A DNA stretch of 64,000 nt, from contig CM119372.1 in the NCBI GenBank assembly GCA_051294905.1, positions 28,894,001 through 28,958,000 on the forward strand, given 5' to 3'. Positions within the stretch are counted from its first letter, which is position 1. Each line of letters starts with the position of its first letter. The notes beneath the pieces were generated by a model. That model saw only the letters and a program-made list of their open reading frames with translations, did not search any database and was not told the DNA's origin. The position numbers and the translations under genes are program-made. This DNA is from Botryllus schlosseri. Lineage: Eukaryota. Shown piece by piece: positions 17,127 to 56,214 of the stretch.

Positions 17127-20100
17127 ATGATTCTGTTGGAAACACAGAACCGCATAATCTTAGATACGCTAAATTACAAATTCGACTGTGCAGTACAAGG
17201 GTAAGAGCGATGTGCGTCAAGAATCAGTAGTGTTGCAAGTGGTTATATGCTTCTCTCATTTTCAGCGCAAAGCCAGAATCCATAGACTCTACAATTGCGG
17301 ATTTCGACGGCGTCTTGTATCACATTTCCAACCCAAATGGCGATAAAACCAAAGTCTCGGTCAGTATTTCTCTGAAGTTTTACAAAGACCTGGAAACGCA
17401 TGGCTCCACTGGAGTAAGTACGATGCAGTATGCATGCATGATGTCGTTAGTAATTTTGCGTATAGAATGGAAAGACCTCCCGAAATTCTTCATCACAGTA
17501 TCGATTTATTATTGCTGCATGATTGCTATCTTGACATAATTATGACCATGAGAATTTTAGAAGTCTACCCACTCATCCACTCATAGTCAAAATAATGTCT
17601 GCCTTATTATTATTCTAATCCCCCAAATAAGTTTGTAAGAAAAACATACAACTTTGTGCTGGGGCGAACCATGAGTTTTGATTCATTTTTTTAACTACCG
17701 GCCTGGTTGGAATTGGTGGCAACGTCACGCAGGATTTTCTGTTTAATTCCTTAATTATTCTTTATAGAAAAGCTCTCATCACGCCTAATTTATTTCAAAA
17801 AATGGACAGAGATTCCATATAGGACTACCGGTATCCATGAGTCTGGGGCCAGACTAATCTTTGGTTGTTTTACGGCTATATGACTTGGGTGTGACAAACC
17901 AGAGTGGAATTGGTGAAAACGTCATGAGCAACTTTCTGTTTACCTACTTGATTATTCTATACAAGAAACCCTTGAAACTGTCACGCGCAACTTATTGCCG
18001 AAAAGAACCACTGTCTCTAGTCTGGGTGACAGACAGGGAGATGGGTTTCTTGGCAAGAAATTTCTGCATAGAATAATTAGTCGCTAAACGGTAGATTGCA
18101 AGTGACGGCTGACGCTGCCACAAATTCCACCCCTTTATGTAATCAGTGTCCGCTGCTCACGCAATTCTACGTGAGCGCTTTACTTCACCTGGACAATCGT
18201 TACTGCTCGCCTGATAAATTGTGCAAAATGTACCGAGATTCCACCCAGAGTCTATTCTGTCTATATGAAACCATGCAGGCTGTCAGTTGTTTGCACAATG
18301 ACTCGGTTGGTCTTAAATTCATGGCTGCAATTGCCAATTGGAATCACTGTAGAACCTGTTTGGAATCGGTGTCCTGTGCTCACACTATATTTTATTTTCT
18401 AATTATTTTTTATTAAATTACTTCAACTTGGAAAATCATCGCTGCTCACCTGATATATCCGGCAAAAAGGCCAGCGATTCCAATCAGGCTGTAGAATTGT
18501 CGCTAACCAGTAGGTTGCGTATGTCAATTGCCATCCATTATTGTCGCTAACCAGTAGGTCGCGTATGGCTATTGCCATCCATTATGGATACTGTCATATT
18601 AAATCAAGAATTGATGGTATGCAACTCATGATAATGCACAATATGATCATTTGTCAAATTTAACATGGATATCAAATAGCCCGGGTAATACATGTAGTAG
18701 CCTAATGTAGTAATACTGGCAAGCATTCACAAATATTGAGCTAAACAGACTTGACATTTATGCTGAGGTTCAGTTATGTTTCACTTAACTTCAGTGAATA
18801 CTACTGCATGTGAAATATTCATAGCTAGTACACTGATTCGTTAACCTGTATTTTATTTTGAATGTAGGCTACGGAATGCCAAGTGATAAAAGCTTCGGCT
18901 ATCTTGCGATACTATTGACAGGTTCATAAGTTTCTCATCTTATCTTGCAGCTCCTAGAAAAAATCTACGGACAGCATCTAGCTCCTACTGAGTCCGGCTA
19001 CAGTGTGACGCTGATCTACGATTTGACGAGCATTCCGAAGGATTACTCAAAGTTATCATCCGATGTACGATACTGACCACATGCCGGATTTATTCTTTCA
19101 TCCGGTAACTCTCCAAATCGTGTTCCAGGCCGCCAGACTGAAGAGGAATTGCTTCGCATCTGTTTTTGAGAAGTATTTCGAAGCCCAGGAAAGCGGAGAG
19201 AGCATCAAACGTGCTGTGATCAATTACAGAGACGATGAAACAATGTAAGTTTCATTGCTCACTTAATCTAAACCTGTTTACATACTACTCGAGTCTCAAA
19301 TTTTTACTTAGTCACAAGTGCATGCAATACGAGACATGATCAAAGAAATGTCAAAACTTCTTCTGAATGTTTAAAATCAAATATCTGAAAAGCACCCAAA
19401 TAGTTTCCTAAAGTAGAATTGGGTTGGTGTGTCTCACACTTTGGCCGGAGATAGCTTCTTTTGAAATTGCAAGATGTAGGGGAGAGGATGCCAGGATGAG
19501 ACCCTTTTCTGATATTTCAATGCCACTCAAAGAGTAATGCCATCTGAGGATTAATTTTGGTATCAATGGAAAGTCTATGATCTGTACTATTTTTGACTAT
19601 GTCTTGAGTTATATTGAACAATATACTTATGGATTTCCTGGCCCTCGAAAATCCTTGCTCAAATGTCTCAACTTACCTCCCAGGTGAAGGTAAGATGAGA
19701 CAGTGCCAAAGCGTGATCAGTAGTTTCAGTAGTTTCACACTAGATCAGTGTTTGCACTAAAATACAGTAGTGATAGTGAATATAATATTTCCATGTCCTG
19801 TGCTGGGTTAAATTTCACATTGGAGTCGAAATCGTACAATCATTTCCGATCATTCCTATCAAATCCTGTGATTGCTCGTATTGGATGAAAACCCGCATGC
19901 AACTTGGAAAATTAGCATTAATTCTGAACCCTCCATTCCTCATCTGATATGCAGCACTGTTGCCTGTAAAAACTGCTTGAGTAGGCCCAACCAGTGCAAG
20001 TTCCATTGATCTATTTGAGTGTCCTTCGAGTAATCTTGTTATTGGTTCACTACGGCATATTGAAAATTCATGGGATAACACGGTTTGAGAAATGTACAGT

Positions 20101-33166: not shown

Positions 33167-34964
33167 CACGAGAGACTGAAGACGATCCCAATCGGCCTCA
33201 ATTTATATGTGATAGAGCCTACTGGGAGTCCAGCACTATCATGTTTTCTAATTTTTGCGAATACAGCTCGACTCAGTTTTGTATATTACGAATATCTTTT
33301 ACATTTTTAGAAGGGTCACTGAATTCAAGAAATCTAGGGGCACATAATTGCGCGAAGCTGAATCAATCTGCAGCAAAATATTCTAATTTATGATATATTT
33401 TATAAAATACGAAAATATGAGATGGGCATGGTCCCTGACTACGCCAATGAGTCGAAACTGCTGCTTTTTAAGTCATAACATCCAAAACTTCGCGGTCAAG
33501 CTGATCCAAGTCTGGGTTGACCTTGCAAGTTCACAATAAGTTATTACAGTTATTTTTTGATAATATAACTAAATTCCGAAATGACCGAGCCATTCAAAAC
33601 CTCCTCGTGGCCTAGTGTTGCCCTCGTGCCACGGTTTGGCCACCCCGGATCTACACTTTATAGCAGGGGTCTCAAACACGCGGCCACGGGCCGCATGCGA
33701 CACGCGAGACCATTTTGTGCGGCCCGCGACGGCATTTTGGATTTTGGATTTTGGACTTATTGGACGTATTACAGGAGTGGGCAAACTGCGGCCCGTGAGG
33801 ACATTTTGTGCGGCCCGCAAAGGCATCGAGAAATGTAGTAGATATTGATAAAATGCGCAGTACAAATCTACTTACTAGAACTAGAGGGAATTCGCTAAAA
33901 TTTTTCCTAAGATATTTCATCATGATATTGATTACGTATAATATTAATAATGTATATTTTGGTTTTATTGTTGGCGCATGAGCCCGGCCCATGGTCGGGA
34001 GCCACGCATTTTGAAATGTTTCGGTTGCTAAACATCCAAGGAAACCAAAACGGAAATGAATTAGTTTGGATAAAAAATGTGATTTTGGGTTAGAACTTAG
34101 AACTCCAACTTTCTGTGGTGTATCTGAACAAACCCTTTCGTGCGTGTGCTGGGTAGTGTCATCCTATGCACAGTTAGGTGCAAATTGTTCATAACTTCGG
34201 CCTCAATTAATTCATAACGAGTTGTCCAAATCAATACAAAAAGCGAAAAGTTGAAGATGAATGCTTTGCAATCAATAAAGTATCAACTGATAGGTACTTC
34301 TGTTTCGTCATCGGAGGTAACGCAATATGTATTACTTTTCATAATATGTCATTATTGTAATAAATTCGATGCTGTAATTCGAAACATCACTTGAATCCGA
34401 ACATTCTAATTTTAGACCAAATGTATCAAATTACGGGGTGCCAAATAAATCAACCGAATTAATCAAATGTTTAGGGCACCAGTAAATTATGTTGATCTCG
34501 TCCTCATAAAAGAACGTGAAGAAGGCAAGTTCAACACTGTAAGCCTTTTCCAAAAAGTTATTTAAATGTAACAGGCTGGTTATGATGATGTAAGCTTAAC
34601 CCAAAGCAGAATCAGCATATCTATGAGCCGATCGCTTCTCACATATTCAAATTTCCATCCTGTCATAAGAATCGGCACAGCCTACTTCCATCCCAAATTT
34701 TGACGACTTGATTGAAGATGGCAAGCTTGTAAAATATCATCAATGTTTCTGACCCATTTGTATTATCATCAAACCAATGTTAAAATTGTTTAATCCATAT
34801 CTATGTGTGCATGTTTACTACAATAATCAAATAAAAGTATGCGTCTTGGCTTATAATTTCGATTATACTATAATGTGGCCCGCGAATGGATTCATATGTT
34901 CAATGCGGCCCGCGAAGTAGTAAGGGAAAGCAATTTATACGCCGGCCAATCCCAGAAGGCCACG

Positions 34965-35335
34965 TCGCCTTAATTGCCACGCCTACATTGCCACATCATC
35001 CGCCCATTGCCGCACCTATGGGACACCCCTTGCCACATCATCCACCCATTGCCACATCATCTGCTACGTCATCAGCCGCGGCCATTGCCACATCATCCGC
35101 CTGTCGCCTTAATTGCCACGCCTACATTGCCACATCATCCGCCCATTGCCGCACCTATGGGACGCCCCCTGCCACATCATCCACCCATTGCCGCACCTAT
35201 AGCACACCCATTGCCACATCATCAGCCACACCCATTGCCACATCATCTGCTACGTCATCAGCCACGCCCATTGTTACATCATCCATCCATATAACGCCCA
35301 TTGCTACATCAACGCCCATTGCTACATCATCATGA
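34965..35335 (+). repeat. Subterminal tandem repeats (CCCATTGCCACATCATC-like); mirrored at ~52885-53157 and ~54488-54590
   Basis: Many degenerate ~20-nt units start ~50 bp inside each terminus. Confidence 0.9.
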
Positions 35336-38290
35336 TTATGCGTACTGAGCTGTTTTTTGACTTTTTTGCGTCAAATCTTACCTTAGCTAGAATCGACAGA
35401 TTTTCTATTATGTGTATTTAGGACTATGTATTTAAATTCCTATTCAGATTATACATAAATGCGAAAACTATGATGTCTATGCAAGGCTATATTCTCCGGA
35501 TAATATTATTAATATCAAAATTCTACACATCATCACTAATTACTTAATATAAAATCCGATTTTGAGCGCTGCGACTTGATAATATGAATCCCTACGCTTC
35601 TGATGCATGATTTTTGCGATAAGGACCCAGGTAACATTCAGAGTCTGCAACGATTGTTTGGATATACATTATAGCAATACCCCACTAAACTATAGGCGGT
35701 TATATTACTCTATTGGTCAGAGATAACTCATCCTTCCATATTTTTAAACTTGATTTTACGTATACAAGTTACGCTCTCTGCAGCCCCACATTTTACGAAT
35801 TATTTTCATTAGACGCAGGCAAGCGATTCTCCAGTTCGGAGGTACGGAAACAAATCACTCGCATGTGCGCGTTCCGAATAGTCTTGTAGAATTTTCTAAA
35901 GTCGTAACAGCTTAGTAGCATATACGCGAATCCCAAGGTGAAAATAATCGAACGAACTATAGCCGCAGGCGTGCGATTCGCAGGGCTTTATTTATACAAA
36001 CACTTTCGATGCCTGTACGCGAACCCCAGCGTTATAACGATTAGGTCTAATTAGCACGTTCTGAAGCCGTAAATTTAGTCAACATCATTGAGATGTCCAT
36101 GATTTAAATATGGTGATCGAGTGTGACAATAGCACTCGTCAAGGTTAGACAAACATAACCTTAAACTACTCTCTACTTCACAAAATATAAAGAACGAACA
36201 CCTTCGCCGCAGGTACGCGATCCCCGACGTTATAATGATAGTGCCAAATTAGCCGCATGAAAGCGAGTCTAATGAATATAACGACAGACACCAAGTTAGT
36301 TGAAAAGTAAAACTAATCGTGACCGATGCAAGACGGATTGAAACAGCGCTTTCGCTCGATTCTTGTAGTGACCACATTTCATACGGTTCAGTCCTTTTCA
36401 TGTCACTAGAATAAGGGTGAATAAACCGACAGTGAAACGCCACCGACGACTTATAACGTAATAATGTAAGCTGCGTCGGGTGCTGCTTTAATGTTAGGAG
36501 CGAATATAGTAGAAAGTCCACGTCTGGACACCTGTAAGCAGCTGCGCATACTACCGTAGTAAAACGCATAGCAGAATTCACGCAAAAGTCGATATTGCTT
36601 TGTGATGATTTTGATGTTGTTCCATACCGATTGGGAATATAGGACTCCTAATTCCTTAACTAACTACATAATCCCTAGTAACGTAGTCAGACGCATAACG
36701 GAATTTACGCAAATCGGTATTGCTCTGCGATAATTTTGACCACTATGTTTTGATAATAACTTGCTTCCGAGAAATAGATAACATTCATTATACGTTAGAT
36801 GATACTTTTCCTTTATATTCTATTATGTGTATTTAGGGCTAATGCGACATCACTATGTTGGCGACAGGCCTGATTTGAACACGCTAATTTTGCAAATTAA
36901 ACTTATCACCCACCACGAACACTCAATGAAGAGCACCCTGGAGCACCCACATAAATGCTCCACAATTTGTGACGTATAATATACTGAGCATATAATAAGC
37001 TGACAAAACTGATACTTGAGTACTCCGAAATGAACAAGTATTTTACCTTTACACGACGTTTTTGTAAAATGAATACTAATGGTACGCGAATGATCATAGA
37101 CTAAGCTTGCTTTCAGAGTTGGAAACTAAATGCATATGAAAATTTAACTATGTTTTCCCCTCACGCATCAGATGTAGGCCTACTCAAGTGTTTATGAGGC
37201 GGCGAATAGTTCGAAGGTTGTTGGTATGCAAGGACGTCACATAGAATTGTGGAGTTTTCTGTAAACTATAATCCAGTGATCTATTTTCAATCACTATACT
37301 TTTATTAATCTAAACTAAGTACTGTTAGTAGGCAAATCCTAGAAAAGTATCCTCTGATAAAAGCAGGAGTAATTCGTTATCTGTGAAATAAATAGATAGC
37401 GCGCAATATGAGCGGTGTTACGATGACTGACAAATACTTTGAATTAATGCATAGAAGTAGCGATTTCGAACTACGTAAAAAGTTAGTCGAGCTCACGCAT
37501 TTTCCATTTTCAAAAGTCGACGTTTTTTGTAAAATGAATAATAATTTTAATGAAAAATAAAAAAGAGCGAAAAATTACATTTTATCTCGGAACGCAACAA
37601 GAAAAATCGTATGAACTTGTAAACTACTTATTTATGACATAATAATAATTCTACTTGTACACTTATTCACATTTTATACCACTTTTAGTAATACTTAACG
37701 GTTTCAGTTTTAAATAAAACTCGGAATATAAAGTAATCGAAAAATTCGGTAACCAATTTCGCGTAGGCTATGCATACATATGAGGGAAGTTACATCAACG
37801 CGTGTTAACTAGTTGTATTATGTAGCTTGTAATTCATGCAAGTTTCGAAACTTCTACACCGAGTCTTTTTAAAGTAGATAGAAACGAAAAACAATTACGC
37901 CTAGGCTATGCATACAAATGAGGAAAGTTCCATCAACGCGTGTTAACTAGTTGTATCGAGTTATCGAATGAGTTTTTTCCTTACATCAAAACAACTAGAA
38001 TGTGTAACTACATTAAAAAAACGTTCCTAACCCTTAACGCACCCGCGATAAATCGTACAAGCAACAAGTTTCGAGTAATCGAAATCGCGCCCCCTGAATT
38101 CAAAGCTTATTTCGAGATCTAAGCTACTTTGAAAATGAGGATCCTAGGATTTGCTTGAGTTTCATCCAGTGGCGGCTCGTGACAATATCGGGTGGTGGGG
38201 CAAGGGCTGCAAGCGACTTTTTATCAAGATGACGTCACAATGGCGTTTTCCAACGTAAACAAGTAACTTGGTGGTACGGACTACGTACGG

Positions 38291-39857
38291 CAGGGGTTCT
38301 CAACCCGCGGCCCACGGGCCGCATGCGGCCCGCAGACGATTGTTTTGCGGCCCGCGACATCTTTCATCATAAACACAATTATTGCTGACACGGTATTGTA
38401 ACAAATTAATTTAGATACTTGGCTCTTTTATCGCACCGTCCTTGTTTCGTTTGATAATAATTTTTGAACGCAGGGGTTCTCAAACTGGGAGGCGCGCCCC
38501 TTTGGAGCGTGAAAGCATCTGAAAGGGGTGCGACGCTGCGGTCAACTGAAAAAAATTTTCGCGCTGCGCGCAATTTGTCTTCAGTTCATAGTTATTTCTC
38601 TGTGTATAGTCCGAATTCCATATTTGAGAATTCTCTCATCAACAGTCATAACCTTCCATGCCATCAAACTAGCCGTTTGTAGCATTCTGGTTGCATTTTG
38701 TTATATGACGATAAGAGAGCACGAAATTATTCTCTATAAAAAAAGGGGGTATGTCTGAAAAAGTTTGAGAACCACTGCTTTAATGTGCTCTCGTTTCTTG
38801 ATATATGCTCGACTTCAGATTGTTACTGTTTTGAATCGGTATTCTGCTGGACTCTGGTTCAAGTGAATCCCGCTACGTAGTTAGCCTGCAATTTTAAAGA
38901 ATGTGTGACTCACTGCGAACGGTTGTTGAGATTGCCGACAACGTTACAGACGCATCGTTCAAAATTACTTGGAATATCGCTAAATCCTAGAAATCTGCTA
39001 CGGAAGGTGCGATTTCAATAAGACCTTCACATACTGTGCGAATATCAGCTGTTTCCGGAACTTAGCAGCAAAGACAATATCACCAGACAAATTTCGAAGA
39101 TACAGTCGTCTGATTCAATCGTGTCCAGACGAGTTACGTCAATGTCAGTCGGTCGCATGTTCTTAAACACGTTGCCTAGTAGGTACTGCTTTAACCCAAC
39201 CTTGGACAAATCCACCGACATTGCATAACTAATTATCTGGTTGAATTTTATCGGAGTGGACATATATGCAGAGGAAATGCTGGCTGGGCAAACGTGGTGA
39301 GGGGGCCTGCGAAAAATATCAGCTTGACAAAGCTAACTCTGTAACTGTTGATGTAGGGCTCCAGGCATGGAAGGAATGGAGAATGGTTGATTGGTTTGCT
39401 CAGAAATGGTCCCGAACGCCAGACTTCCTCTCATATCACTCAGAGCTCACTCAATGTGATAATGGCCTCTGTAACGCAAAATTTACCATCATTTTATAAT
39501 TGCTCACTCAAGCATTGAAACAGAGAGTTCGGTTCTCTGGTGGAAGGGTTTTAAGTTGCATATACCGACCTGGCAATGAATGCAATGCACGCTCCATGAA
39601 GGGATTTAATTGCGCCGCTAGAAGATACATATTCTCAGAATAAGCAGCAGCTGCAAACGTATGAACGCTGTCCATTGATGCTTTATAAATTATAATGCAT
39701 AAAAATGTACTAAATGCCCGTATACGAGTGGTAAATAGGCTGCAGTAGCCTAAATTTAATTGCAGCGCACAAATACACGGTAATATTGCTATGCGGCCCG
39801 CAGCGTATTTTGCTGTTAAAATGCGGCCCGTTACACAAGAGAAGTTGAGAACCCCTG
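38291..39857. mobile_element. hAT element nested in 38167-41592
   Basis: TIR CAGGGGTTCTCAAC; perfect TSD ACGTACGG. Confidence 0.92.
38471..38777. mobile_element. 307-bp hAT MITE nested in 38291-39857 (relative at ~4160-4456)
   Basis: TIRs CAGGGGTTCTCAAACT / AGTTTGAGAACCACTG; TSD degenerate. Confidence 0.8.
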
Positions 39858-42033
39858 ACGTACGGTAACACGAACTTCCCGACAACAGTGATTTTAACGT
39901 ATGTGCCGCGAGAGGTCTGCCGGTGAGCTGTGACTTGAAGTGTGGTAACTGCGTAAACGGCGTACGGAACAAAGATTCGACACGGTTCATGTTCGCACTA
40001 TACCTGACTAATTATCTGCAGCAATGGAAATGACTATAACTCGAGAGATTGCGTAAGCCTAACTGGCTGGAGACTGTCACACGACACATACGGCTTACGG
40101 TCTATAGTGTCTATATGTCTGCTGCAAAATCGCCTTGGGAAAATATATTACCGAATAAATACGTGGATGAAAGCCGAAAACTTGGTACACTGTTACATGA
40201 AATCATCGAGAAATAGCCTCATGACCGTTTTCGGTATGGTACACTGTCAAAATTAATACGAACACACCAACACCGAATTTTGCGTAAGATTTACTGAGGA
40301 ATAGGCTAATCAAGCGATCAGCTCTTAGCCGCCATCGAAAACGAAACAGCTATCACGCTTGACAGGGGTTGTAATTGTAAGCAAATGGCCTGAAGGCCAC
40401 AATTTCACGGTGAAATTGACATTGGAGAATATAAAATAAAAGTAAATATTTGAATGCAAACCGAGGATGTTAGTAAACTGTTTCATGATATCATCATCTC
40501 ATCACCTATCTCAGTATGGAACACAGTTAGCGTTAACACAGATACACCGGCTTTTGCGTGAAATCCGCAATGCGTTAGGTGGGCTAAGTGTCAGATCAGC
40601 GCACATCTCTACCATACTCGACCTTAATAACGAAATTGCTGCCCTAATCATTGAGTGCCAACCTTGAGACTAGGCACAGCGTTCGATACTAAAATCAAGA
40701 CATACCATGCAAAAGCTCCTGACGGATCTAGGTAAGGAGCATCGTTAAAATCAATGGAGACCAATACCGGCTTTGCGTAAAATATGTTTGCGATAAATGA
40801 CGAGTCAGCTCTCACTCGACTTAGGAAACGAAATTACCACAAACACAGTACAGTGACAAACTTGAAACTTGGTACAGCGTTCGATACTAACATTAAGACT
40901 TACCGTACCAAATGTCATGACCGATCTCGGTATGGAACATCGTCAAAATCAATGGATACCAATACCGGCTCTTGAGTAAAATCTGTTTGCGATACATGAC
41001 GGTCAGCACACACTCAACTTCGGAAACGGAATTACTACCCTAAACTTTAAGTAGAAACCCTGTAACTAGGGACAGTGTTAAATACTACCATCACGACATG
41101 ACATACCAAGTTTCAAGAATTATCATGGTGTGAAACACCATCAAAATCGACCTAGACCAGCAAAGGTCGACTAAACGCATATGACGGTAACCGAGTTCAG
41201 ATATAGATACGATTGTTACATCACACCTTAAGGGCGACTAGGCTATGTTGCCCCGGTTGCTCGGTAATTTTATGAATAGGAGAGAGTAAATCACTGTTTC
41301 TTTATTGTGCGCGACTTTGAGAGAATAGACAGTGAAAGCTTGTTATGAGCGCTACCGGGGCATGCCCCGGCTAGGCATTCGCAAAGCGAAAACACGGAAG
41401 AGAATTCGATTTTCGCAGACTTCGCTATATATGGGCGGGCATTTACAAGCGAAAGGACAAGAAGAATACGATTTTCGCTGTGATTTCGGTATATATAGAT
41501 TGCTGTGCGTCTCTAAATGGTAAAGAACTGTTATTGAACAGAATTTTAGGCGGGGCAATGCCCCAGTTGCCCTATAGGACGAGCCGCCACTGGTTTCATC
41601 TATATTTTACAATGCGTTTTCGCGTTCCAGAATGACTTATGTCAATGAAAAATAGCCATTGATCATGGTTTTGTTTTTGAAAGATGTCGCGATGCCGGTG
41701 AATTTTATAGTTCTTGTAAAAAGTTGTTTGTACACAATATATGTTTAAAGTAAGTCCTACGCATTCATGATTTCGTCCGAGTTCGTATTTTAGTAATATA
41801 TACTAATTTACGATAGCGCGTTTGTAACTTGTGCAAGTACAGGAATATCATAGTTCTTGAACCGTGCTCAATGCTTAATAGAGCATTTTTGCTATTTTTC
41901 ATCGCCATAAGTCATTCTGGACCGCGTAAACGCATCGTACGATATAGATGAAAGTTATGCAAATCCTAGGATCCTCATTTTCAAAGTAGCTAAGATCTCG
42001 AAATAAGCTCTGACTTGCTATTCTCCTCAAAGC

Positions 42034-42291
42034 ATGGAATTATCAAGAGTATCACCTTCGATCACTGAAGAAACGGATGAAATTATATTCGAAGCATATT
42101 CCTTGACCAGGAATTTTATCATGTACGAACTCGACGGCTCATGCGTTAAGGTAAATACGAAAGCAGAGAGAACCTTACGTCGAGTTGGGGATGAAATATT
42201 CGAGCGACATCGAACTGTCCTAAACGCAGTCTCCAAACGTCTCCGCTATTTGCACTTTTTCACATTTTATAACACCTTAAGTAGTACTTAA
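42034..42291 (+). pseudogene. Truncated Bcl-2-family (Mcl-1-like) ORF with BH4-like and BH3 regions, left arm
   Basis: TLRRVGDEIFERHRTVLNAVSKRL resembles the Mcl-1 BH3 region TLRRVGDGVQRNHETAFQGMLRKL. It is preceded by a BH4-like helix EAYSLTRNFIMYEL. No BH1, BH2 or TM. Confidence 0.7.
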
Positions 42292-42882
42292 CAGTTTTAG
42301 TTTTAAATAAAATACGGAATATAAACTAATCGAAAAATTCGGTTTTTGCGTGCATCTGTTTTGCGGGAGCGTATAGCACGTACCTATACATAGTCAACTT
42401 TAATAACTGAATTACCATGCTTAACATTGAATCCCAACTCTAAACTTGATACGTAGATGTAGGACATTATGGCAATGCACCATGCTAAATTTCATCACAC
42501 ATCTAATGATGGAACACCTTTAAAACTAACGCAGTCGAATACCGACTTTTACGCGTATATCTGTTTTGCGTGAACTTAGCATATACCTATACATAGTCAA
42601 TTTTAATAGCAGAATTACCGTGTTAAACATTGAATTCCCACCTTGAAAGTTGGTACGCGGTTATAGGACATTATAAAAATGCACCATACCAAATCCCATC
42701 AGACATTTCATGATGGAACAACTTTAAAACTAACGCGGCTCTACATCAACTTTTTGCGTACATCTGTTTTGCGGGAGCGTATAGCACGTACCCATACATA
42801 GCCAACTTTAATAACGGAATTACCATGCATTGAATCCCAACTCTAAACTTGATACGTAGTTGTAGGGCATTATGGCTATGCA

Positions 42883-45194
42883 CAGGGGTCTTTAAATGGT
42901 ACTGAAGTACAATTTAGCAAAAATAGCTTATTTTATACTCAACCAGAATTTTAAATTATACTAAAATATACTTTTATGAAAAAATGGCTTTCCTGGCGTA
43001 GGAGGGTACAATACTGAGACTTTTATGTGAAAACAAGCTCGTGTTTTGCATTACTCCACCTGCTGATGTTTCAAGTTTATTGATCTAACCAAAAATCACA
43101 CAAGTTTCTGCAGCTCTTGAAACTGTTTTGCATGAAGGCAGCCTTCGAGCAAGAAATCGGTCAGGCTCTCCCGGTAGTCATTCTTTACAATTCCGATGGC
43201 GGAAAAATCCGCCTCCACTGGTGCCGTCGTTGGAAACACGGTCGAAAGCGTTCCGCAGAAGTCCTTTAGGGTGGGCAGGTGGATGTTCATACCCTCGAGG
43301 ACACCCCGAGCGTCCTTGAAGTTGCTGTCAGGGCCCTCCTCCTCCAACGAAATGCGGAAATTGTCATGGTCTCTGTAATAGTCCCGCAGTTGAGCGTGCT
43401 CCGTCTCGACATCCTCGAGTTTTTCTTCGGCCCACCTAGCTGCTCGAAGCCGTCCTGACTGTTCGCGAAGCAAGTCAGAGACACCTGAACGACGTAACTT
43501 GACCAGTTCCTTCAGAAGCGTCGGTGGTATCTTGTTGTTTTTGATGTCCGCGTTGTTTGCCAGGAGATCACAGACGCCATGAAGTAGGGTGCAAACCAGA
43601 AGGCCGACTCCCCTTTGAACAGTTTTCCTTGTAGCAGCTGAGATTTCATTAAGTTTGGCCTGCACAAAAAGTCCCAAGTCGAGCATGAACTCCTGAACAT
43701 TTGTCATGGAAACAGAAACTGATTCCACTCTGACGTATTCTAATTCACCCTGGAAGCCATCCTCCTCACGAAGCTCTGTAGTTGCTGAACACAAGTCCTT
43801 CAGGTTGTCACGCAACTTCATCAGCTTGGCGTGCTGCTCGGTGACCAGAGTTTTCTTGCCTTGCGGGGACTTGACCACTTTCAGGACCTCTCCGGCGACA
43901 ACGTCAAGAGCGACAACGTATCCACCACTCTGGCGATGGGCGTGCAGGAGGATTTTTTTCATCGAGATACTGCAGCACGCGTATCTTGTTCGCAACAAAC
44001 CATCCAGTCACTCACTTCATTGAAGCCCACCGAGTGTCGACAAAGCGTGGGCATGTTGTTTGCATTTCAGTCTGGAGCTTCTGCTGTCGGCGCAGAAATC
44101 CGATCAAGCTGTTCATTTGAGTAATGAAAGTTTCATTGGCAAGCTTCGAGTAGGCCTTTTGCACAACCAAGTCGAGTTGGTGCAGTCCGCACCAGAAGTG
44201 GAAAATCTCTTGTGAAGCTTCCTTTTGAAGCAGGGTTCCAACACCACCGACGTGGCCTGTCATTGTCGGTTCACCGTCGCTAGTAAACCCTAACAACTTG
44301 CTCCTCAAATCCGAACACAAAATCTCAAGAACAGAGGTCAACAACAGAGGTCAACATTTGACAAATTTTTTTGGCAGTTTTCGCTTCAAACACAGGAACA
44401 GCAATCACGTGAAAGTTGTGAATATCACCATCCATGGTTGTACTCCGCTTGTTACCACAATCGACGGCAACAGAAAATGCCCAGGACTGTTCCAACAAAT
44501 CTTTGAGACCCTGCAAGTTCACAGCCACGATCATTCGAACGACTTTCGCACAATACCCTTCACTGCAGCCCGTATAGAATGCCAGACCCGTCTCTTCCTT
44601 GACTGAAGCAACGAATTTGCAAGCCTGTTGAAACGACGCACCGTCACGAATGAATTTCCTCACCAATTGGAACATTCGCCCCGACTTGAATTCAGAAAGA
44701 AACACAGAATCGTCTTCATCACATCGTTTGAAAATACTCAGAGCACGTTTTTGAGTGGTCTCTTCATGATCGTTGGGGTGGAAAAGCAGCTCCCAGATTA
44801 TCTGCCCCACTATTTCTTTGCAAATCTTGAACTTCAGACTGCCTTCTCCTTCGAAATGAGCATTCAGAGTACTCCTAGTGTCCTGTTTGTTGTCGAAGTA
44901 AGTCAGCTTCAGTTCCTTTGAAAGTGTACTGTACTCGTTCCATCGTGCCTTATGCTGGCATCTGCACCCCCGCCGCTGTCGGTCTCCCCACCCAACCGCC
45001 AGACAGCACCTGTGGGAGCCAGCAGGGTCCGAACGGAAACGATAAACCCGCCAATGAGTTTCTTAGAGACTCCTGTGAACTGACAAACACCGAAAAACGG
45101 TATACAAAAAAATCCTTATTTTATACTCGACAGAAATTTTATTTTATACTAAATTGTACTTTTGAGACCAAAAAGTACAATTTAAAGTGGCCTG
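42883..45194 (-). mobile_element. hAT-superfamily transposon (2312 bp) with a frameshifted transposase, left arm only
   Basis: TIRs CAGGGGTCTTTAAATGGTACT and (rc) CAGGCCACTTTAAATTGTACT; perfect TSD GCTATGCA. Empty site in the right arm at ~48773-48780. Confidence 0.92.
43096..44943 (-). pseudogene. hAT-type DDE transposase in at least three reading frames
   Basis: Motifs in order: WAFSVAVD (D1), GFTSDGE (D2), WCGLHQLDL (CxxH), TRWAS, and VFPTTAPVEADFS (E). Frameshifts near 44340 and 44010. Confidence 0.88.
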
Positions 45195-45234
45195 GCTATG
45201 CACCATGCTAAATTTCATCACACATCTAATGATG

Positions 45235-45526
45235 GAAATTGCTTACTAAGAGAAGTATATTGTTGTATACACAATAGTGGAGAGAATATTTAAAATGTAG
45301 TAAGCAGGCCGATGGGTATTCGTTTAGTTGTATAGGCATAAAAAACATTCCCGCGCGCTCTTAAACAAAACACTTCCTAACCCTACCACCTAATACTAAG
45401 ACGCGCGCGGGAATGTTTTTTATACCTATACAACTAAACGAATACCCATCGGCCTGCTTACTACATTTTAAATATTCTCTCCACTATTGTGTATACAACA
45501 ATATACTTCTCTTAGTAAGCAATTTC
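45235..45526. repeat. Central hairpin: ~128-bp near-perfect inverted repeat with a ~33-nt loop
   Basis: gaaattgcttactaagag...cattcccgcgcgctctta pairs with taagacgcgcgcgggaatg...ctcttagtaagcaatttc. Confidence 0.95.
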
Positions 45527-46789
45527 TCGTGAATTCCGAAACACATTGACGCGTGTTAACTTCTATATTCGGTGATAGTATCATTTTCATGTCTGATAAT
45601 GTTACTTGTCAAGGTGATACAAACGTAAGCTCAAACTACTTTAAAATTTAAAGTCTTAGCAAATTTTATCTAACACTGAAACTGTCGAGTACCGATAAAG
45701 TACTCTAAAACCTAGTCACTTTTTACGTGGAAGGAGAACATAGCGAAGTACTTGTACATTTGCAGTACTTAAGTATAGGTTTGGCCTGCTTGCGCTATAC
45801 TTAATGAAGTGATTACCTATTTACACTGCATCTACTTCTATTTCAGAGTTTTTCGCTTTTTCGACCAAACTATACCTCAATACTTACTTTTTAACTAACT
45901 GGCAAATCATTACTTCTTGTACTTTAGTGGGACTTTACTGCTACAATTTACTTTTTTCAGTGGATCACTGGTCTTGGTGAGTGTTGTCAGTTTCATCCAT
46001 ATCCTACGAAAAGCAACTTGAGTACTTCACGGGTTCGTATCATCGCAAATAATATATTCTAAACATGTTTAGATAGCGAGGAGTTGTAATTATAGGTGAA
46101 AGGGACAAATTTTATCTAAAACTGTAACTGTAAAGTACCGATAAAGTAGTCTAGAGTATTTTTTATGTTTATTCAGCTCAACGAATATCTTCATTTGGCC
46201 TGCTTACTACATTTTAAAGATTTTCTACGCTAGAAAAATCGCTGTAACATGATAAGTATATTATAATTAATCTTATCAGCGCGGCATAGTACATTCGAGT
46301 AAATTCATTAAATTAGCTTATGTTTATGAAATTATTTGGTTTCCGAATTCTATCTAAAACTGAAACCGACGAGTATCGGTAAAAGCAGTCTTAAACCGTA
46401 GACACTTATTACGTGGAGGGAGGCGATAGCGAAGTACTCGTGCATTTTGTACTACTCAAGTATAGGTTTTATCTGCTTGCACTAAACTTAATCAAGTGAT
46501 TAACTATTTACACTGCATCTACTTCTATTTCAGAGTATTCGGTTTTCAGGTAAACTATACCTGCAATACTTACTTTTTAACTCACTCGGAAATCATCACG
46601 TCTTGTACTTTACTAGAAATTTACTGCTACTAAATGTTGAAATGTACTGTTTTCAGCGGTCTTGATGAGTTGTGCTAGTTTCATCTATATCCTACGACGC
46701 ATTTTCTCGAGTGGGATGTTATAGGAAGCAAGACGAATCATTGTAAAAGTGTTGAAACTTAATTACATATGTAATTCCATCACTAAAGT

Positions 46790-49310
46790 TGATCACGCAT
46801 AGGTACGTGCTACACTCCTGCAAACAGATTCACGCGAAGTTGGTATAGAACTGCGTTAGTTTTAAAGGTGTTACATCATGAAATGTCTGACGAAATTTGG
46901 TATGGTGCATTGTTATTATGTCCTACAACCGCGTATCAACGTTCAAGGTGAGAATTTAATGTTTAGCATGCTAATTCTGTTATTAAAATTGACTATGTAT
47001 GGGTATATGCTATGTTCACGAAAAACAGATATGCATAAAAGTTGGTATTCGACCGCGATAGTTTCAAAGGTGTTCCATCATTAGATGTGTGATGAAATTT
47101 AGCATGGTGAATTGCCATAATGTCCTATAACTACGTATCAAGTTTCGAGTTGGGATTCAATGTTAAGCATGGTAATTCCGTTATTAAAGTTGGCTATGTA
47201 TGGGTAGGCTACGTGCTATACGCTCCCACAAAACAGATGTACGCAAAAAGTCGATGTAGAGCCGCGTTAGTTTTAAAGTTGTTCCATCATGAAATGTGTG
47301 ATGGGATTTGGTATGGTGCATTGTTATAATCTCCTATAACCGCGTACCAACTTTCAAGGTGGGAATTCAATGTTTAACACGGTAATTCTGCTATTAAAAT
47401 TGACTATGTATAGGTATATGCTATGTTCACGCAAAACAGATATGCGTAAAAGTCGGTATTCGACTGCGTTAGTTTTAAAGGTGTTCCATCATTAGATGTG
47501 TGATGAAATTTAGCATGGTGCATTGCCATAATGTTCTACAACTACGTATCAAGTTTCGAGTTGGGATTCAATGTTAAGCATGGTAATTCCGTTGTTAAAG
47601 TTAACTATGTATAGGTACGTGCTATACGCCCCCACGCAAAACAGATGTACGCAAAAAGTCGATGTAGAACCGCGTTAGTTTTAAAGTTGTTCCATCATGA
47701 AATGCGTGAGGAAATTTGGTATGCTGCATAATCACAATGTCCTATACCTACGTACCAAGTTTCAAGGTGAGGAGTCACATATTAGCATGATAATTCTGTT
47801 ATTAAATCTGACTATGTATATGTACACGCTACCGAAAACAGATTTAGGCAAAAGTTGCTATAGAACTGCGTTAGTTTTAAAGTTGTTCCATCATGAAATG
47901 TGTGATGAAATTTGGTATGCAGCATAATCACAATGCCCTGGAGCTCATTTAGATACGTTTTTTAATTTAGTTATACATTCTAGTTGTTTTGATGTAAGGA
48001 GAAAATCATTCGATAACTCGATACAGCTACTTTAACACGCGTTGATGTAACTTTCCTCATTTGTATGCATGCATAGCCTACGCGAAATTGGTTACCGAAT
48101 TTTTCGATTAGTTTATATTCCGTCTTTTATTTAAAACTGAAACTGTTAAGTATTACTTAAAGTGTTATAAAATGTGACAAAGTGTACAAGTAGAATTATT
48201 ATTATGTCATGAACAAGTAGTTTACAAATTCATACGATTTTTCTTGTTGCGTTCCGGGATATAATGTAATTTTTCGCTCTTTTTTATTTTTTATTTTTTC
48301 AATAAAATTAGTATTCATTTTACAAAAAACGTCGTGTAAAGATAAAGTACTTGCAAAATTTGACATGGTGCATTGTCATAATGTCTTACAACTGCGTACC
48401 GAGTTTCAAGGTAGGGAGTCGAATATTAACATGGTAATTCCGTTAATAAAATTGACTATGTTTAGGTACGTGCTACGCTACGGAAAAACAGATTTAGCCA
48501 AAAGTCTGTATAGAACTGCGTTGGTTTTGAAGGTGTTACATCATGAAATGTCTGACGAAATTTGGTATGGTGCATTGTTATTATGTCCTACAACTGCGTA
48601 CCAACGTTCAAGGTGAGAATTTAATGTTTAGCATGCTAATTCTGTTATTAAAATTGACTATGTATGGGTATATGCTATGTTCACGAAAAACAGATATGCG
48701 TAAAAGTCGGTATTCGACTGCGATAGTTTCAAAGGTGTTCCATCATTAGATGTGTGATGAAATTTAGCATGGTGCATAGCCATAATGCCCTACAACTACG
48801 TATCAAGTTTAGAGTTGGGATTCAATGCATGGTAATTCCGTTATTAAAGTTGGCTATGTATGGGTACGTGCTATACGCTCCCGCAAAACAGATGTACGCA
48901 AAAAGTTGATGTAGAGCCGCGTTAGTTTTAAAGTTGTTCCATCATGAAATGTCTGATGGGATTTGGTATGGTGCATTTTTATAATGTCCTATAACCGCGT
49001 ACCAACTTTCAAGGTGGGAATTCAATGTTTAACACGGTAATTCTGCTATTAAAATTGACTATGTATAGGTATATGCTAAGTTCACGCAAAACAGATATAC
49101 GCGTAAAAGTCGGTATTCGACTGCGTTAGTTTTAAAGGTGTTCCATCATTAGATGTGTGATGAAATTTAGCATGGTGCATTGCCATAATGTCCTACATCT
49201 ACGTATCAAGTTTAGAGTTGGGATTCAATGTTAAGCATGGTAATTCCGTTGTTAAAGTTGACTATGTATAGGTACGTGCTATACGCTCCCGCAAAACAGA
49301 TGCACGCAAA
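46790..49310. repeat. ~205-bp degenerate tandem array with alternating variants, interrupted at ~47940-48350; mirrored at ~42350-42882
   Basis: aaaacagat recurs at ~47022, 47230, 47433, 47638 and 47836, and continues from ~48365. Confidence 0.9.
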
Positions 49311-49363
49311 AACCGAATTTTTCGATTAGTTTATATTCCGTATTTTATTTAAAACTAAAACTG

Positions 49364-49621
49364 TTAAGTACTACTTAAGGTGTTATAAAATGTGAAAAAG
49401 TGCAAATAGCGGAGACGTTTGGAGACTGCGTTTAGGACAGTTCGATGTCGCTCGAATATTTCATCCCCAACTCGACGTAAGGTTCTCTCTGCTTTCGTAT
49501 TTACCTTAACGCATGAGCCGTCGAGTTCGTACATGATAAAATTCCTGGTCAAGGAATATGCTTCGAATATAATTTCATCCGTTTCTTCAGTGATCGAAGG
49601 TGATACTCTTGATAATCCCAT
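49364..49621 (-). pseudogene. Mirror copy of the truncated Bcl-2-family ORF, right arm
   Basis: Identical to 42034-42291 except E2G. Confidence 0.7.
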
Positions 49622-52600
49622 GCTTTGAGGAGAATAGCAAGTCAGAGCTTATTTCGAGATCTTAGCTACTTTGAAAATGAGGATCCTAGGATTTGCATAA
49701 CTTTCATCTATATCGTACGATGCGTTTACGCGGTCCGGAATGACTTATGGCGATGAAAAATAGCAAAAATGCTCTATTAAGCATTGAGCACGGTTCAAGA
49801 ACTATGATATTCCTGTACTTGCACAAGTTACAAACGCGCTATCGTAAATTAGTATATATTACTAAAATACGAACTCGGACGAAATCATGAATGCGTAGGA
49901 CTTACTTTAAACATATATTGTGTACAAACAACTTTTTACAAGAACTATAAAATTCACCGGCATCGCGACATCTTTCAAAAACAAAACCATGATCAATGGC
50001 TATTTTTCATTGACATAAGTCATTCTGGAACGCGAAAACGCATTGTAAAATATAGATGAAACTCAAGCAAATCCTAGGATCCTCATTTTCAAAGTAGCTT
50101 AGATCTCGAAATAAGCTTTGAATTCAGGGGGCGCGATTTCGATTACTCGAAACTTGTTGCTTGTACGATTTATCGCGGGTGCGTTAAGGGTTAGGAACGT
50201 TTTTTTAATGTAGTTACACATTCTAGTTGTTTTGATGTAAGGAAAAAACTCATTCGATAACTCGATACAACTAGTTAACACGCGTTGATGGAACTTTCCT
50301 CATTTGTATGCATAGCCTAGGCGTAATTGTTTTTCGTTTCTATCTACTTTAAAAAGACTCGGTGTAGAAGTTTCGAAACTTGCATGAATTACAAGCTACA
50401 TAATACAACTAGTTAACACGCGTTGATGTAACTTCCCTCATATGTATGCATAGCCTACGCGAAATTGGTTACCGAATTTTTCGATTACTTTATATTCCGA
50501 GTTTTATTTAAAACTGAAACCGTTAAGTATTACTAAAAGTGGTATAAAATGTGAATAAGTGTACAAGTAGAATTATTATTATGTCATAAATAAGTAGTTT
50601 ACAAGTTCATACGATTTTTCTTGTTGCGTTCCGAGATAAAATGTAATTTTTCGCTCTTTTTTATTTTTTATTAAAATTATTATTCATTTTACAAAAACGT
50701 CGACTTTTGAAAATGGAAAATGCGTGAGCTCGACTAACTTTTTACGTAGTTCGAAATCGCTACTTCTATGCATTAATTCAAAGTATTTGTCAGTCATCGT
50801 AACACCGCTCATATTGCGCGCTATCTATTTATTTCACAGATAACGAATTACTCCTGCTTTTATCAGAGGATACTTTTCTAGGATTTGCCTACTAACAGTA
50901 CTTAGTTTAGATTAATAAAAGTATAGTGATTGAAAATAGATCACTGGATTATAGTTTACAGAAAACTCCACAATTCTATGTGACGTCCTTGCATACCAAC
51001 AACCTTCGAACTATTCGCCGCCTCATAAACACTTGAGTAGGCCTACATCTGATGCGTGAGGGGAAAACATAGTTAAATTTTCATATGCATTTAGTTTCCA
51101 ACTCTGAAAGCAAGCTTAGTCTATGATCATTCGCGTACCATTAGTATTCATTTTACAAAAACGTCGTGTAAAGGTAAAATACTTGTTCATTTCGGAGTAC
51201 TCAAGTATCAGTTTTGTCAGCTTATTATATGCTCAGTATATTATACGTCACAAATTGTGGAGCATTTATGTGGGTGCTCCAGGGTGCTCTTCATTGAGTG
51301 TTCGTGGTGGGTGATAAGTTTAATTTGCAAAATTAGCGTGTTCAAATCAGGCCTGTCGCCAACATAGTGATGTCGCATTAGCCCTAAATACACATAATAG
51401 AATATAAAGGAAAAGTATCATCTAACGTATAATGAATGTTATCTATTTCTCGGAAGCAAGTTATTATCAAAACATAGTGGTCAAAATTATCGCAGAGCAA
51501 TACCGATTTGCGTAAATTCCGTTATGCGTCTGACTACGTTACTAGGGATTATGTAGTTAGTTAAGGAATTAGGAGTCCTATATTCCCAATCGGTATGGAA
51601 CAACATCAAAATCATCACAAAGCAATATCGACTTTTGCGTGAATTCTGCTATGCGTTTTACTACGGTAGTATGCGCAGCTGCTTACAGGTGTCCAGACGT
51701 GGACTTTCTACTATATTCGCTCCTAACATTAAAGCAGCACCCGACGCAGCTTACATTATTACGTTATAAGTCGTCGGTGGCGTTTCACTGTCGGTTTATT
51801 CACCCTTATTCTAGTGACATGAAAAGGACTGAACCGTATGAAATGTGGTCACTACAAGAATCGAGCGAAAGCGCTGTTTCAATCCGTCTTGCATCGGTCA
51901 CGATTAGTTTTACTTTTCAACTAACTTGGTGTCTGTCGTTATATTCATTAGACTCGCTTTCATGCGGCTAATTTGGCACTATCATTATAACGTCGGGGAT
52001 CGCGTACCTGCGGCGAAGGTGTTCGTTCTTTATATTTTGTGAAGTAGAGAGTAGTTTAAGGTTATGTTTGTCTAACCTTGACGAGTGCTATTGTCACACT
52101 CGATCACCATATTTAAATCATGGACATCTCAATGATGTTGACTAAATTTACGGCTTCAGAACGTGCTAATTAGACCTAATCGTTATAACGCTGGGGTTCG
52201 CGTACAGGCATCGAAAGTGTTTGTATAAATAAAGCCCTGCGAATCGCACGCCTGCGGCTATAGTTCGTTCGATTATTTTCACCTTGGGATTCGCGTATAT
52301 GCTACTAAGCTGTTACGACTTTAGAAAATTCTACAAGACTATTCGGAACGCGCACATGCGAGTGATTTGTTTCCGTACCTCCGAACTGGAGAATCGCTTG
52401 CCTGCGTCTAATGAAAATAATTCGTAAAATGTGGGGCTGCAGAGAGCGTAACTTGTATACGTAAAATCAAGTTTAAAAATATGGAAGGATGAGTTATCTC
52501 TGACCAATAGAGTAATATAACCGCCTATAGTTTAGTGGGGTATTGCTATAATGTATATCCAAACAATCGTTGCAGACTCTGAATGTTACCTGGGTCCTTA

Positions 52601-53157
52601 TCGCAAAAAATCATGCATCAGAAGCGTAGGGATTCATATTATCAAGTCGCAGCGCTCAAAATCGGATTTTATATTAAGTAATTAGTGATGATATGTAGAA
52701 TTTTGATATTAATAATATTATCCGGAGAATATAGCCTTGCATAGACATCATAGTTTTCGCATTTATGTATAATCTGAATAGGAATTTAAATACATAGTCC
52801 TAAATACACATAATAGAAAATCTGTCGATTCTAGCTAAGGTAAGATTTGACGCAAAAAAGTCAAAAAACAGCTCAGTACGCATAATCATGATGATGTAGC
52901 AATGGGCGTTGATGTAGCAATGGGCGTTATATGGATGGATGATGTAACAATGGGCGTGGCTGATGACGTAGCAGATGATGTGGCAATGGGTGTGGCTGAT
53001 GATGTGGCAATGGGTGTGCTATAGGTGCGGCAATGGGTGGATGATGTGGCAGGGGGCGTCCCATAGGTGCGGCAATGGGCGGATGATGTGGCAATGTAGG
53101 CGTGGCAATTAAGGCGACAGGCGGATGATGTGGCAATGGCCGCGGCTGATGACGTAG

Positions 53158-54487
53158 TGTAACGGGGCGCCATCTATGGCTAGTGATGACGTCATGCATA
53201 TTGACGAAGCGTGTTGTTATTGATGCGTTCACTCTCTTGGATGTACGCCGTGCGAGGTGCACGTGCTGTATTTACTGGTCCTGTTTCCATGCGCCTGTGC
53301 TGCGATCTGATAGCTTGAAGAATAAAGAACTTACAACAACACTGTTACAAATGGCGAGCACTCCAGTCTTCAAGCCTTTCAAGAGTCAGTGAGCACCTGA
53401 GCGGTAACAAAGTGTCATGGATTTGTTGCGTAAGGATCATGAATATATTCGTACAGAGATCAAGCGGGCTCATCGCCGGATTGACGACATGGTTGAGGCC
53501 CAGAAGAGTATTCTCGATCAAGTATTGAGTATTGTGCAAAGTTTTGGAGCCACGCCTGCGCATCCATTGCGGGTTGTTAAACCCTATAATGAGGTTGAAT
53601 CGTCGCGAATTGTTCCGAGAAAGCATGAAAATGTTGGTGCACTTGTTTTGCCTGGTCTGGCTGATCCTGTTTTGTCCGAGGTGTCTGCTAAGTTGGATGG
53701 TTCCTTAGCACATCTTGAAGATTGTGGATCTGTGATGGTGTCTGCTAAGTTGGATGATTCCTTAGCGCATCATGATGACTGTAGGCATGTGATGGAGCCT
53801 GATGTGTCAGCTAAGAGGGATGATTCCTTAGCGCAACTTGAGAATTGCGGGTCTGTTGTGACATGTCATAACATTGAAGTTGACCCGAGCTTGGACTTGA
53901 AAGAGTTGACCGTTTTCGAGAAAATCTGGAATAAGTATAATGCTCCGTATGTTCTGTTGCCGACGGAAGACAAAACGTACTGCGTCCGTACTGATGTCAG
54001 CAAGTTGAATTCCATTACTGTACAAGACGTTATCAAATGGTGCGGTGAAGAAATTGAGGACCTTGCTTCGCATAACTGGGTGGATGGATCGACAGACCTG
54101 ATGATGATCGACAAGATTGTTTGGAATTTCATGTTTTTATATATTGTTTTGTCTCGATATCAGCTATTTGTTTGGCCTAGTCTTCACGATGTTGTATGTG
54201 TCTTTTTGCCTTTGATTCGGTTTACCATTTGATGTGTTATTGGTTTAGAGATAAATGTTCCTCATGTTACCTCTAAAAAATTGGAGGGGGGTATATGTAA
54301 CGGGGCGCCATCTATGGCTAGTGATGACGTCATGCATATTGACGAAGCGTGTTGTTATTGATGCGCTCACTCTCTTGGATGTACGCCGTGCGAGGTGCAC
54401 GTGCTGTATTTACTGGTCCTGTTTCCATGCGCCTGTGCTGCGATCTGATAGCTTGAAGAATAAAGAACTTACAACAACACTGTTACA
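53158..54487 (+). mobile_element. Small non-autonomous LTR retroelement (TRIM-like, 1330 bp), right arm only
   Basis: 192-bp LTRs TGTAAC...GTTACA (53158-53349, 54296-54487) with one visible mismatch; 4-bp TSD GTAG. PBS-like TGGCGAGC follows the 5' LTR and PPT GGAGGGGGG precedes the 3' LTR. Empty site in the left arm at ~35064. Confidence 0.93.
53417..54232 (+). CDS. 271-aa orphan ORF filling the LTR element interior
   Basis: Uninterrupted ORF spanning most of the interior. N-terminal coiled-coil-like segment, three VSAK(L/R)D(G/D)SLA repeats and a hydrophobic C-terminus. No RT, IN or zinc-knuckle motifs. Confidence 0.55.
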   Translation: MDLLRKDHEYIRTEIKRAHRRIDDMVEAQKSILDQVLSIVQSFGATPAHPLRVVKPYNEVESSRIVPRKHENVGALVLPGLADPVLSEVSAKLDGSLAHLEDCGSVMVSAKLDDSLAHHDDCRHVMEPDVSAKRDDSLAQLENCGSVVTCHNIEVDPSLDLKELTVFEKIWNKYNAPYVLLPTEDKTYCVRTDVSKLNSITVQDVIKWCGEEIEDLASHNWVDGSTDLMMIDKIVWNFMFLYIVLSRYQLFVWPSLHDVVCVFLPLIRFTI

Positions 54488-56214
54488 GTAGCAGATGATG
54501 TGGCAATGGGTGGATGATGTGGCAAGGGGTGTCCCATAGGTGCGGCAATGGGCGGATGATGTGGCAATGTAGGCGTGGCAATTAAGGCGACGTGGCCTTC
54601 TGGGATTGGCCGGCGTATAAATTGCTTTCCCTTACTACTCCGCGAGCTCAAAAGTTTGCCCAGCCCTGACTTATTGTGACTCCGAACGCCGTGACTTGAT
54701 ACAACAACGGGCGAAACAAACCATGAAACTGTTATGGGGAATAGTAATATATCAAAAGGTCGTAACTTCCGTTGTGTATTTAGATATATAAGCAGGTCGG
54801 TATGGCAACCATTGGAATTATGTTGCCCTCTTGATGTATAGTTAGTTACATCATCTGTCATCTTGGGTCTCTTTATCCATGATATTATCGCCAATTGAAG
54901 TCGCCGAGTAAACTAGTGGTACGCCCCACAGCTATAACACCAACGGATTATTCGGTGATGGACATTTCTATTGCTATGGCACATTGAACATTATATTCAA
55001 GTTGTTATTGATCTGTTTCAATATATTCGAAGGTAAATCTAACGCTGATTTAATTTGACTTTGGTAATTACATGATAAATAGCCTAATTATCAGGGGTAT
55101 ATGGCTGAAACCCAGATTAGGCTGCTCTGATATCAGATCAATCTCGGTAAATTCTAAAATATTCCACCTATAATTGTGGCACGTCAAATGTCCGATAGCT
55201 GCAAAATTATAACGCGACAGCTTTCACGATGTCATAATGCATTTGTACTATCGCATGCTGATTATAACTAATTATTTTGACCAACTATGCCAAGTACAAC
55301 AACTATTTTATTCAAATATTTAAAAATATGATTTATTTCGTGCCAGGCGTGAATTCACAATAGTAGCCTAAATCACATTTTCACGATGTGTGAGGAATAT
55401 CAGTCTGCAAGGTCCCGTCAAATAAGGCCTACTTGGAAATACATTGAATACCCATATTGTTGGTGGTGCGGCCCGCGGCGCCATCAAAAAGTAAGGAAGT
55501 GTCCTGCGAGCACATTTGAGTTTGAGACCCTGCTCTGCAGCAATGAATCTAACTTCATGCCCAATTGCAGAAGATTGGTATAGCCTACTCCTCGTATCAT
55601 TTAACGCTGCCTGAGACAGTTGGGATGCGGTGTGCAGCGGGCGGTTGTGCTACGTACTAATCGACGCAGCTATTTCGGAGCCAACCCTCTCCTCGCCGGG
55701 ACACATGACGCTGGGGTGGCGAAAATGTTACTGGGCAAAGTGCGCTGATACAAAGACCGGCGGCAATAAAATCTAAGCACAAAATGACCGTCATGGATTG
55801 GACAGAACCTTCTATATCAGTGCTTCCCAACCGGTGGGTCGGGAAGCTATATTTCAGACGGGTCGCGAATAAATTCTAAATGCTACAGTTTTCTATAAAA
55901 TTTGCCAAAAATGGCAAACACCTTCTTTTCTCACGATTAGACGGGCAAATATCCCATCTCCTCTAAATTAAATTGTTTTTCTCCGTGCCGTAAGTCACGT
56001 TATCGCGCTCACAATCAAACAGATGACAAAGATTTTCGTGAGAGTCATATTCATTGGAGTGTAATTGAAATTGGATAGTGTATTTTATGTATGCCTTAAA
56101 ATTGGAAACCAATCATTCTTTCCTCCATGAACTTTGCGAAATTTGATTGGAAAATACAATCCAGCCCGATAAGAATCAGCTAACCATTGCCTCGACGCAA
56201 GCTATACGCGGGGC

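Follow-up and report, generated by a model that had tools for sequence, protein, structure and literature searches.

A gene-less element with Polinton-type ends in Botryllus schlosseri, likely a former whole-element palindrome with a 3.2-kb loss in the left arm

Palindromic or hairpin forms are known from phi29, the yeast pGKL plasmids, adenovirus 12 SYREC and the snap-back genomes of adeno-associated virus. The subgenomic molecules of phi29 have been attributed to template switching (PMC4974454, citing Murthy 1998; this and the other papers cited here are drawn on in excerpt). At short inverted repeats the T7 replisome generates hairpin chimeras (PMC9484634) and, in yeast, foldback inversions are mediated by hairpins (PMC7467729). 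Among transposable elements, Polintons (or Mavericks) have a length of 15-25 kb (PMC6431247), and in Mavericks the terminal inverted repeats end in (AG)3 or (AGT)2 and are accompanied by a 6-bp target site duplication (PMC8097293). Here we describe an element with ends of this type in a stretch of 64,000 nucleotides from Botryllus schlosseri (NCBI GenBank assembly GCA_051294905.1, contig CM119372.1, positions 28,894,001 to 28,958,000 of the forward strand). This whole stretch is called the window below, and all coordinates refer to it. We are fairly confident that the element is gene-less and Polinton-ended, likely a former 15.9-kb palindrome over its entire length and probably helper-dependent, and that 3.2 kb have been lost from its left arm.

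The geometry of the element was obtained by comparing the window with itself and by exact alignment of the blocks. The whole inserted element (34916..54639; a strand is given only for features to which one was assigned) covers 19,724 bp and its termini read AGTAGT...ACTACT. It is flanked by an exactly aligned 6-bp target site duplication, CCGCGA (left copy 34910..34915, right copy 54640..54645, both on the + strand), for which the chance is ~1e-4 for a given 6-mer. Exact alignment reveals no mirror symmetry in the flanks outside the element. Both the termini and the duplication agree with the description of Mavericks (PMC8097293). With regard to the Polinton length of 15-25 kb (PMC6431247), native DNA now amounts to 12,636 bp while the length computed for the ancestor, 15,850 bp, lies within the range. 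An earlier inspection of the letters alone (the sequence-only reading) had proposed a perfect palindrome of ~15.8 kb. The analysis supports a palindrome of Polinton type whose axis lies at the central hairpin, but the length is that computed for the ancestor. At 4.6 kb today and, by inference, 7.9 kb originally, the arms are longer than the ~2 kb repeats of a butterfly Polinton (bioRxiv 10.1101/2025.02.07.637071). The window was searched for a paralog of the target repeat with an empty site, but none was found: the sole paralog of the left flank departs from it before the insertion point is reached.

The element differs from Polintons in its coding content. In the native DNA the longest stop-free stretch is 139 codons and ATG frames are no commoner than in shuffled sequences; those listed in two right-half segments have 45-106 codons. 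None of the eight native frames matched a Pfam family at cut-off. Inspection of the frames and the Pfam scans found no polymerase B or integrase gene (decayed remnants of these two were not sought by profile) and no capsid, packaging ATPase or protease gene; the same scans found no transposase in the centre of the element. It is not an autonomous Polinton, and its copying and insertion would probably have depended on one.

Foldback transposons, such as FB and Galileo of Drosophila or the Mutator-like elements, also have long inverted arms that contain tandem repeats, and a member of such a cut-and-paste family, unrelated to Polintons, would likewise be without a Polinton gene. The Drosophila elements, however, have other end motifs, a cut-and-paste transposase and longer target duplications; foldback duplications are of 7-11 bp, compared with 6 bp here. 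With no transposase in its centre, and with a 6-bp duplication and (AGT)2 ends that match the Maverick description (PMC8097293), the element is unlikely to be a foldback transposon.

The two arms are nearly exact mirror images. The outer part of the left arm (34916..38166) mirrors 54488-54639 and 50055-53157 with four differences: there are none in the block 34916-35067/54488-54639 (152 bp), while the block 35064-38166/50055-53157 (3,103 bp) contains two substitutions and two one-base indels. The inner part (41593..42882, mirror of ~48773-50062) corresponds to the block 41593-42883/48772-50062 (1,291 bp), with four substitutions. A final block without differences, 45193-45237/48738-48782 (45 bp), includes a 43-bp arm stub (45195..45237), located between a later insertion and the deletion junction, which mirrors the array unit starting at 48738. 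The right arm (48738..54639, exact alignment) carries 4.57 kb of native outer DNA and the Polinton-type terminus. In sum, with three later insertions set aside, the matched arms total 4,571 bp, show eight differences (six substitutions and two one-base indels) and are 99.8% alike.

The first of the later insertions (38167..41592, ~3.4 kb) is a DNA transposon with 14-bp inverted ends and an 8-bp duplication (GTTTCATC). It contains a nested element (38291-39857) with a separate 8-bp duplication. The second (42883..45194, - strand, ~2.3 kb) has CAGG ends and an 8-bp duplication (GCTATGCA); from these hallmarks we take it to be a hAT-like transposon. Its coding region is split into three frames, for which Pfam is blank. 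The third (53158..54487, + strand) is a small 1.3-kb element with 192-bp long terminal repeats (TG...CA, one difference), a 4-bp duplication, GTAG, and a single 274-codon frame without a Pfam match. It is a young non-autonomous retroelement. The long left arm had been described as running up to the hairpin. Its junction is indeed exact, but the insertions (3.4 and 2.3 kb on the left and 1.3 kb on the right) leave only 45 bp of continuous arm there.

Three independent insertions, one nested, compared with only six substitutions between the arms may indicate very high local transposon traffic or homogenisation of the arms after the element was inserted. A 198-bp array in the first insertion (40654-41148) is ~70% similar over 70-90 bp to the 202-bp arrays of the palindrome (46771-49312), by which the two would be distantly related. 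The arm also contains an older inverted repeat of its own (49639-49764/49999-50124; 126 bp, 89%, with a 234-bp spacer), which is possibly a relic of an earlier fold-back.

Since strand-displacement amplification can yield inverted chimeras (PMC9484634), arms as similar as these might suggest a fold-back artefact of amplification or assembly. This is very improbable. The mirror ends exactly at the terminal motif, with its target duplication, the flanks are unmirrored, and each of the three arm-specific insertions has its own target duplication.

The deletion junction (45235..45237, + strand) consists of a 3-bp microhomology, GAA, which pairs with TTC both at 45524-45526 and at 48738-48740; the match is no longer than this. 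That these three bases are common to both alignments had been pointed out in the sequence-only reading and is correct, but carries little weight, as a microhomology of at least 3 bp is expected at ~6% of random junctions (chance ~0.06). It is also true that the hairpin begins where the arm ends, but this is automatic if there was a deletion and is not a second coincidence.

Opposite this junction, a segment of 3,211 bp (45527..48737), composed of old direct duplications and ~200-bp tandem arrays, is present only in the right half. The 3-bp overlap taken alone is ambiguous: it could result either from a deletion in the left arm or from an insertion into the right arm accompanied by a 3-bp duplication, and TTC does flank the segment as a direct repeat. 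However, no inverted ends were found for the segment in any register tried, and on the right it ends midway through an intact array unit. The right arm crosses 48737/48738 unbroken within a 200-bp array unit, and the preceding 40 bases are near-identical in all three sister units compared. Because the right arm runs through this point intact, the left junction is the derived one. The inner left arm beside it matches the unit starting at 48738 at 200 of 200 positions, compared with at most 172 for the seven other units tested. Moreover, the right arm contains same-direction paralogs for 2,048 of the 3,335 bases in 45403-48737 and inverted paralogs for only 50, which argues that the segment is native to the right half and that polarity flips at the hairpin. 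The continuity of the array unit, the mapping to a single unit and the same-direction paralogs all indicate that the left arm lost its mirror of 45527-48737, as had been proposed. By these comparisons within the window the right arm is native sequence through both junction points, and the direction of the event is shown.

The central hairpin has the geometry and the axis that had been suggested. Its stem (45235-45358/45403-45526) is 124 bp long with one mismatch, followed by a 1-nt bulge and five further pairs, around an axis at 45380. It folds with -153.7 kcal/mol (361 nt), and none of 100 shuffles folds as well. According to alignment and fold, the left stem (45235..45363) is the remnant of the inner left arm and the right stem (45397..45526) is the start of the intact right half. 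Between them is a single-copy apex loop of 33 nt (45364..45396), closed by a CG-alternating stem with the 1-nt bulge. The loop is without G on the + strand; the - strand is G-rich and includes TTAGG. A likeness of the loop to 50178-50208 was marginal (9 of 300 shuffles were as good) and was dropped as evidence. The right stem opens a 600-bp unit, a second copy of which lies at 46154-46697 (the two best blocks are ~80% alike, with many gaps between them), and within the stem 45411-45486 has an 80% paralog at 46154-46232. Rfam gave no match at the gathering score for 45200-46800.

Such a strong stand-alone fold would also be expected of a MITE, a miniature inverted-repeat transposable element, and genome-wide occurrence of the hairpin as an independent MITE with its own target site duplication had been named as a finding that would refute the palindrome. 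At the hairpin ends there is no flanking duplication of at least 4 bp, apart from shifts inside the stem, and the 64-kb window contains no second copy, only a partial paralog inside the element itself. We consider it highly unlikely that the hairpin is a MITE or that the 3.2-kb segment is an insertion. On the evidence of the window, the 292-bp hairpin is probably the surviving centre of the palindrome and not an independent element.

The preferred explanation is a whole-element palindrome copied by a helper Polinton. The protein-primed polymerase of the helper would initiate at either AGTAGT end and displace one strand. As the element is self-complementary over its full length, the displaced strand would snap back on itself as a giant hairpin with the 33-nt loop at its end, and synthesis around this loop would restore the palindromic duplex and keep the arms alike. 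The integrase of the helper would then insert the duplex, with the 6-bp duplication that is observed. The lineage itself might have originated in a U-turn of the polymerase at a short imperfect inverted repeat, of which the bulged CG stem at the apex would be the trace. After insertion the arms received the three transposons described above; the mirror of 45527-48737 would have been removed and the ends rejoined at the 3-bp microhomology.

Two known systems come close to this scheme. Template-switch subgenomic molecules are alike in that a polymerase U-turn duplicates one terminus and gives a helper-dependent inverted molecule, as we infer for the element. They are, however, extrachromosomal by-products of the laboratory or of infection, whereas the element is integrated in the germ line, has a target duplication and has a long history of internal duplication. 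Transpovirons, as described in PMC5499653, are also linear, with inverted ends, and are helper-dependent relatives of Polintons but, unlike the element, they are ~7 kb long, carry a helicase gene, ride on mimiviruses and are not palindromic over their whole length.

Several observations weigh against the palindromic, helper-dependent origin. All the evidence for dependence on a Polinton consists of a 6-base motif and a 6-bp duplication. A 22-mer from the hairpin arm had no match in viral contigs or in metagenome contigs, and a 22-mer of the end motif had none in viral contigs. An 18-mer of the end motif had 12 matches in metagenome contigs, none of which (0 of 12) extended beyond 25 bases, and these were rejected as chance. 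In addition, the age of the hairpin can be read in two ways. The divergence of its stem (1/124) fits the rate in the arms (6 substitutions in 4,571; P 0.15) but, when the bulge is counted, 2 of 129 pairs differ, slightly above the arm rate (P ~0.02). We read the bulge as a possible trace of the short imperfect seed repeat; a hairpin older than the arms also fits.

An older hairpin is what would be expected if the 15.9-kb palindrome had never existed. In this case a non-palindromic parent would have carried a local 124-bp hairpin at which a polymerase stalled, jumped to 48740 and recopied the outer 4.6 kb in a single copy-back. Fold-backs seeded by short inverted repeats are known, and the excess of differences in the hairpin (2/129 pairs compared with 8/4,571 in the arms, P ~0.02) is in its favour. 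The jump, however, must land exactly at the base of the hairpin, and, with the bulge left out, stem and arms are equally young (P 0.15). A single copy-back is thus a rather unlikely source of the structure, and we retain the ancestral whole-element palindrome.

For the loss itself, microhomology-mediated repair in the chromosome has a slight preference, at somewhat better than even probability, because just 43 bp lie between the second insertion and the junction and because the copy has been damaged in place. A deletion during replication of the element itself is a weaker but serious candidate, and any other time or route is improbable. The proximity of the insertion (post hoc chance ~0.02) may mean that it and the deletion are linked. 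The 3.5-kb centre is free of insertions, but not significantly so (P 0.38).

Replication could have produced the loss by a template jump before insertion, within the same family of elements. The result would be a mobile asymmetric variant whose panhandle measures 4.6 kb and whose loop measures 3.5 kb. A microhomology of 3 bp suits slippage as well as it suits repair and, with both ends intact, the asymmetric form would still be copyable. The position of the second insertion, on the other hand, hints at a local chromosomal event, and three insertions indicate that the copy was resident long enough to suffer damage. Such a variant therefore remains a tentative alternative to chromosomal repair. 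The deletion itself is ordinary decay, and the copy described here is a decayed one: a single damaged copy in which the deletion marks the axis.

The sequence-only reading had added that the deletion would stabilise the palindrome. According to reviews (PMC7999016, PMC8701086), breakage of palindromes is already suppressed by spacers of 35-52 bp, and the deletions that stabilised a 15.4-kb palindrome in a mouse transgene were mostly small and broke the central symmetry. That palindrome (PMC8701086, PMC7999016) is comparable to the element in size and in its asymmetric loss. Here, in contrast to its mostly small symmetry-breaking deletions, 3.2 kb were lost from one arm and the apex, including the 33-nt loop, was spared; the long arms are now 3.5 kb apart. 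This gap may lower snap-back. Since the apex survived the deletion, the claim of stabilisation is weak, as is the case for selection for palindrome stability behind the loss.

The 64-kb window contains one copy of the element. The words of 45100-54800 are present in part in 21 of the 24 sequencing runs listed. In six runs, which come from four other studies of this species, the share is 0.38-0.43. Non-native inserts and flanks could supply 0.16; four of the 24 runs come from one sample, possibly that of the assembly, and runs with a share below 0.2 (two) or with none (three) were disregarded. As 0.38-0.43 exceeds the share of inserts and flanks, related DNA exists outside the assembled sample. 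Nine runs labelled as seawater, marine, hot-spring or plain metagenomes or as other organisms hold 0.24-0.32, also above 0.16. Host DNA shed from a high-copy family is the simple reading of these shares; particles may be an alternative.

Other features of the window lie outside the element. A KIF4-like kinesin (12412-15522, - strand) is encoded in one uninterrupted frame of 1,036 codons. Its best named matches are vertebrate KIF4 proteins (36-40%), its three top matches are unnamed, and it is either an intron-poor gene or a retrocopy. A frame at 17231-17539 (+ strand) includes a candidate exon that is blank in Pfam and presumably resembles the Arp2/3 subunit ARPC2. Self-comparison also identified a ~993-bp tandem duplication in 1-3479, whose copies are 93-98% alike, and a self-inverted, MITE-like element of 700 bp (20094-20790).

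In a literature search outside the founding Polinton papers and Repbase, where non-autonomous Polintons may be described, no account of whole-element palindromic Polinton derivatives was found, and such a derivative is apparently new. A bolder possibility, which we put forward with clear reservation, is that the element represents a long-lived, gene-less hairpin satellite of an animal Polinton. It would alternate between a 7.9-kb hairpin and a 15.9-kb duplex, with a conserved G-rich apex as a functional turn-around signal, would be sized for the capsid of the helper and would be exported in particles.

That animal Polintons replicate by protein-primed strand displacement is deduced from the genes they carry, and little direct support for it is known. 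Their life cycle still awaits experimental characterisation, according to PMC5499653. This mode of replication predicts, as its product, a Polinton-ended palindrome of the whole element, and a deletion in one arm that spares the apex is rare and marks the axis of symmetry. If the satellite lineage is real, a DNA copy-back genome of natural origin would have become a heritable transposon, and this would provide direct evidence for protein-primed strand displacement in animal Polintons.

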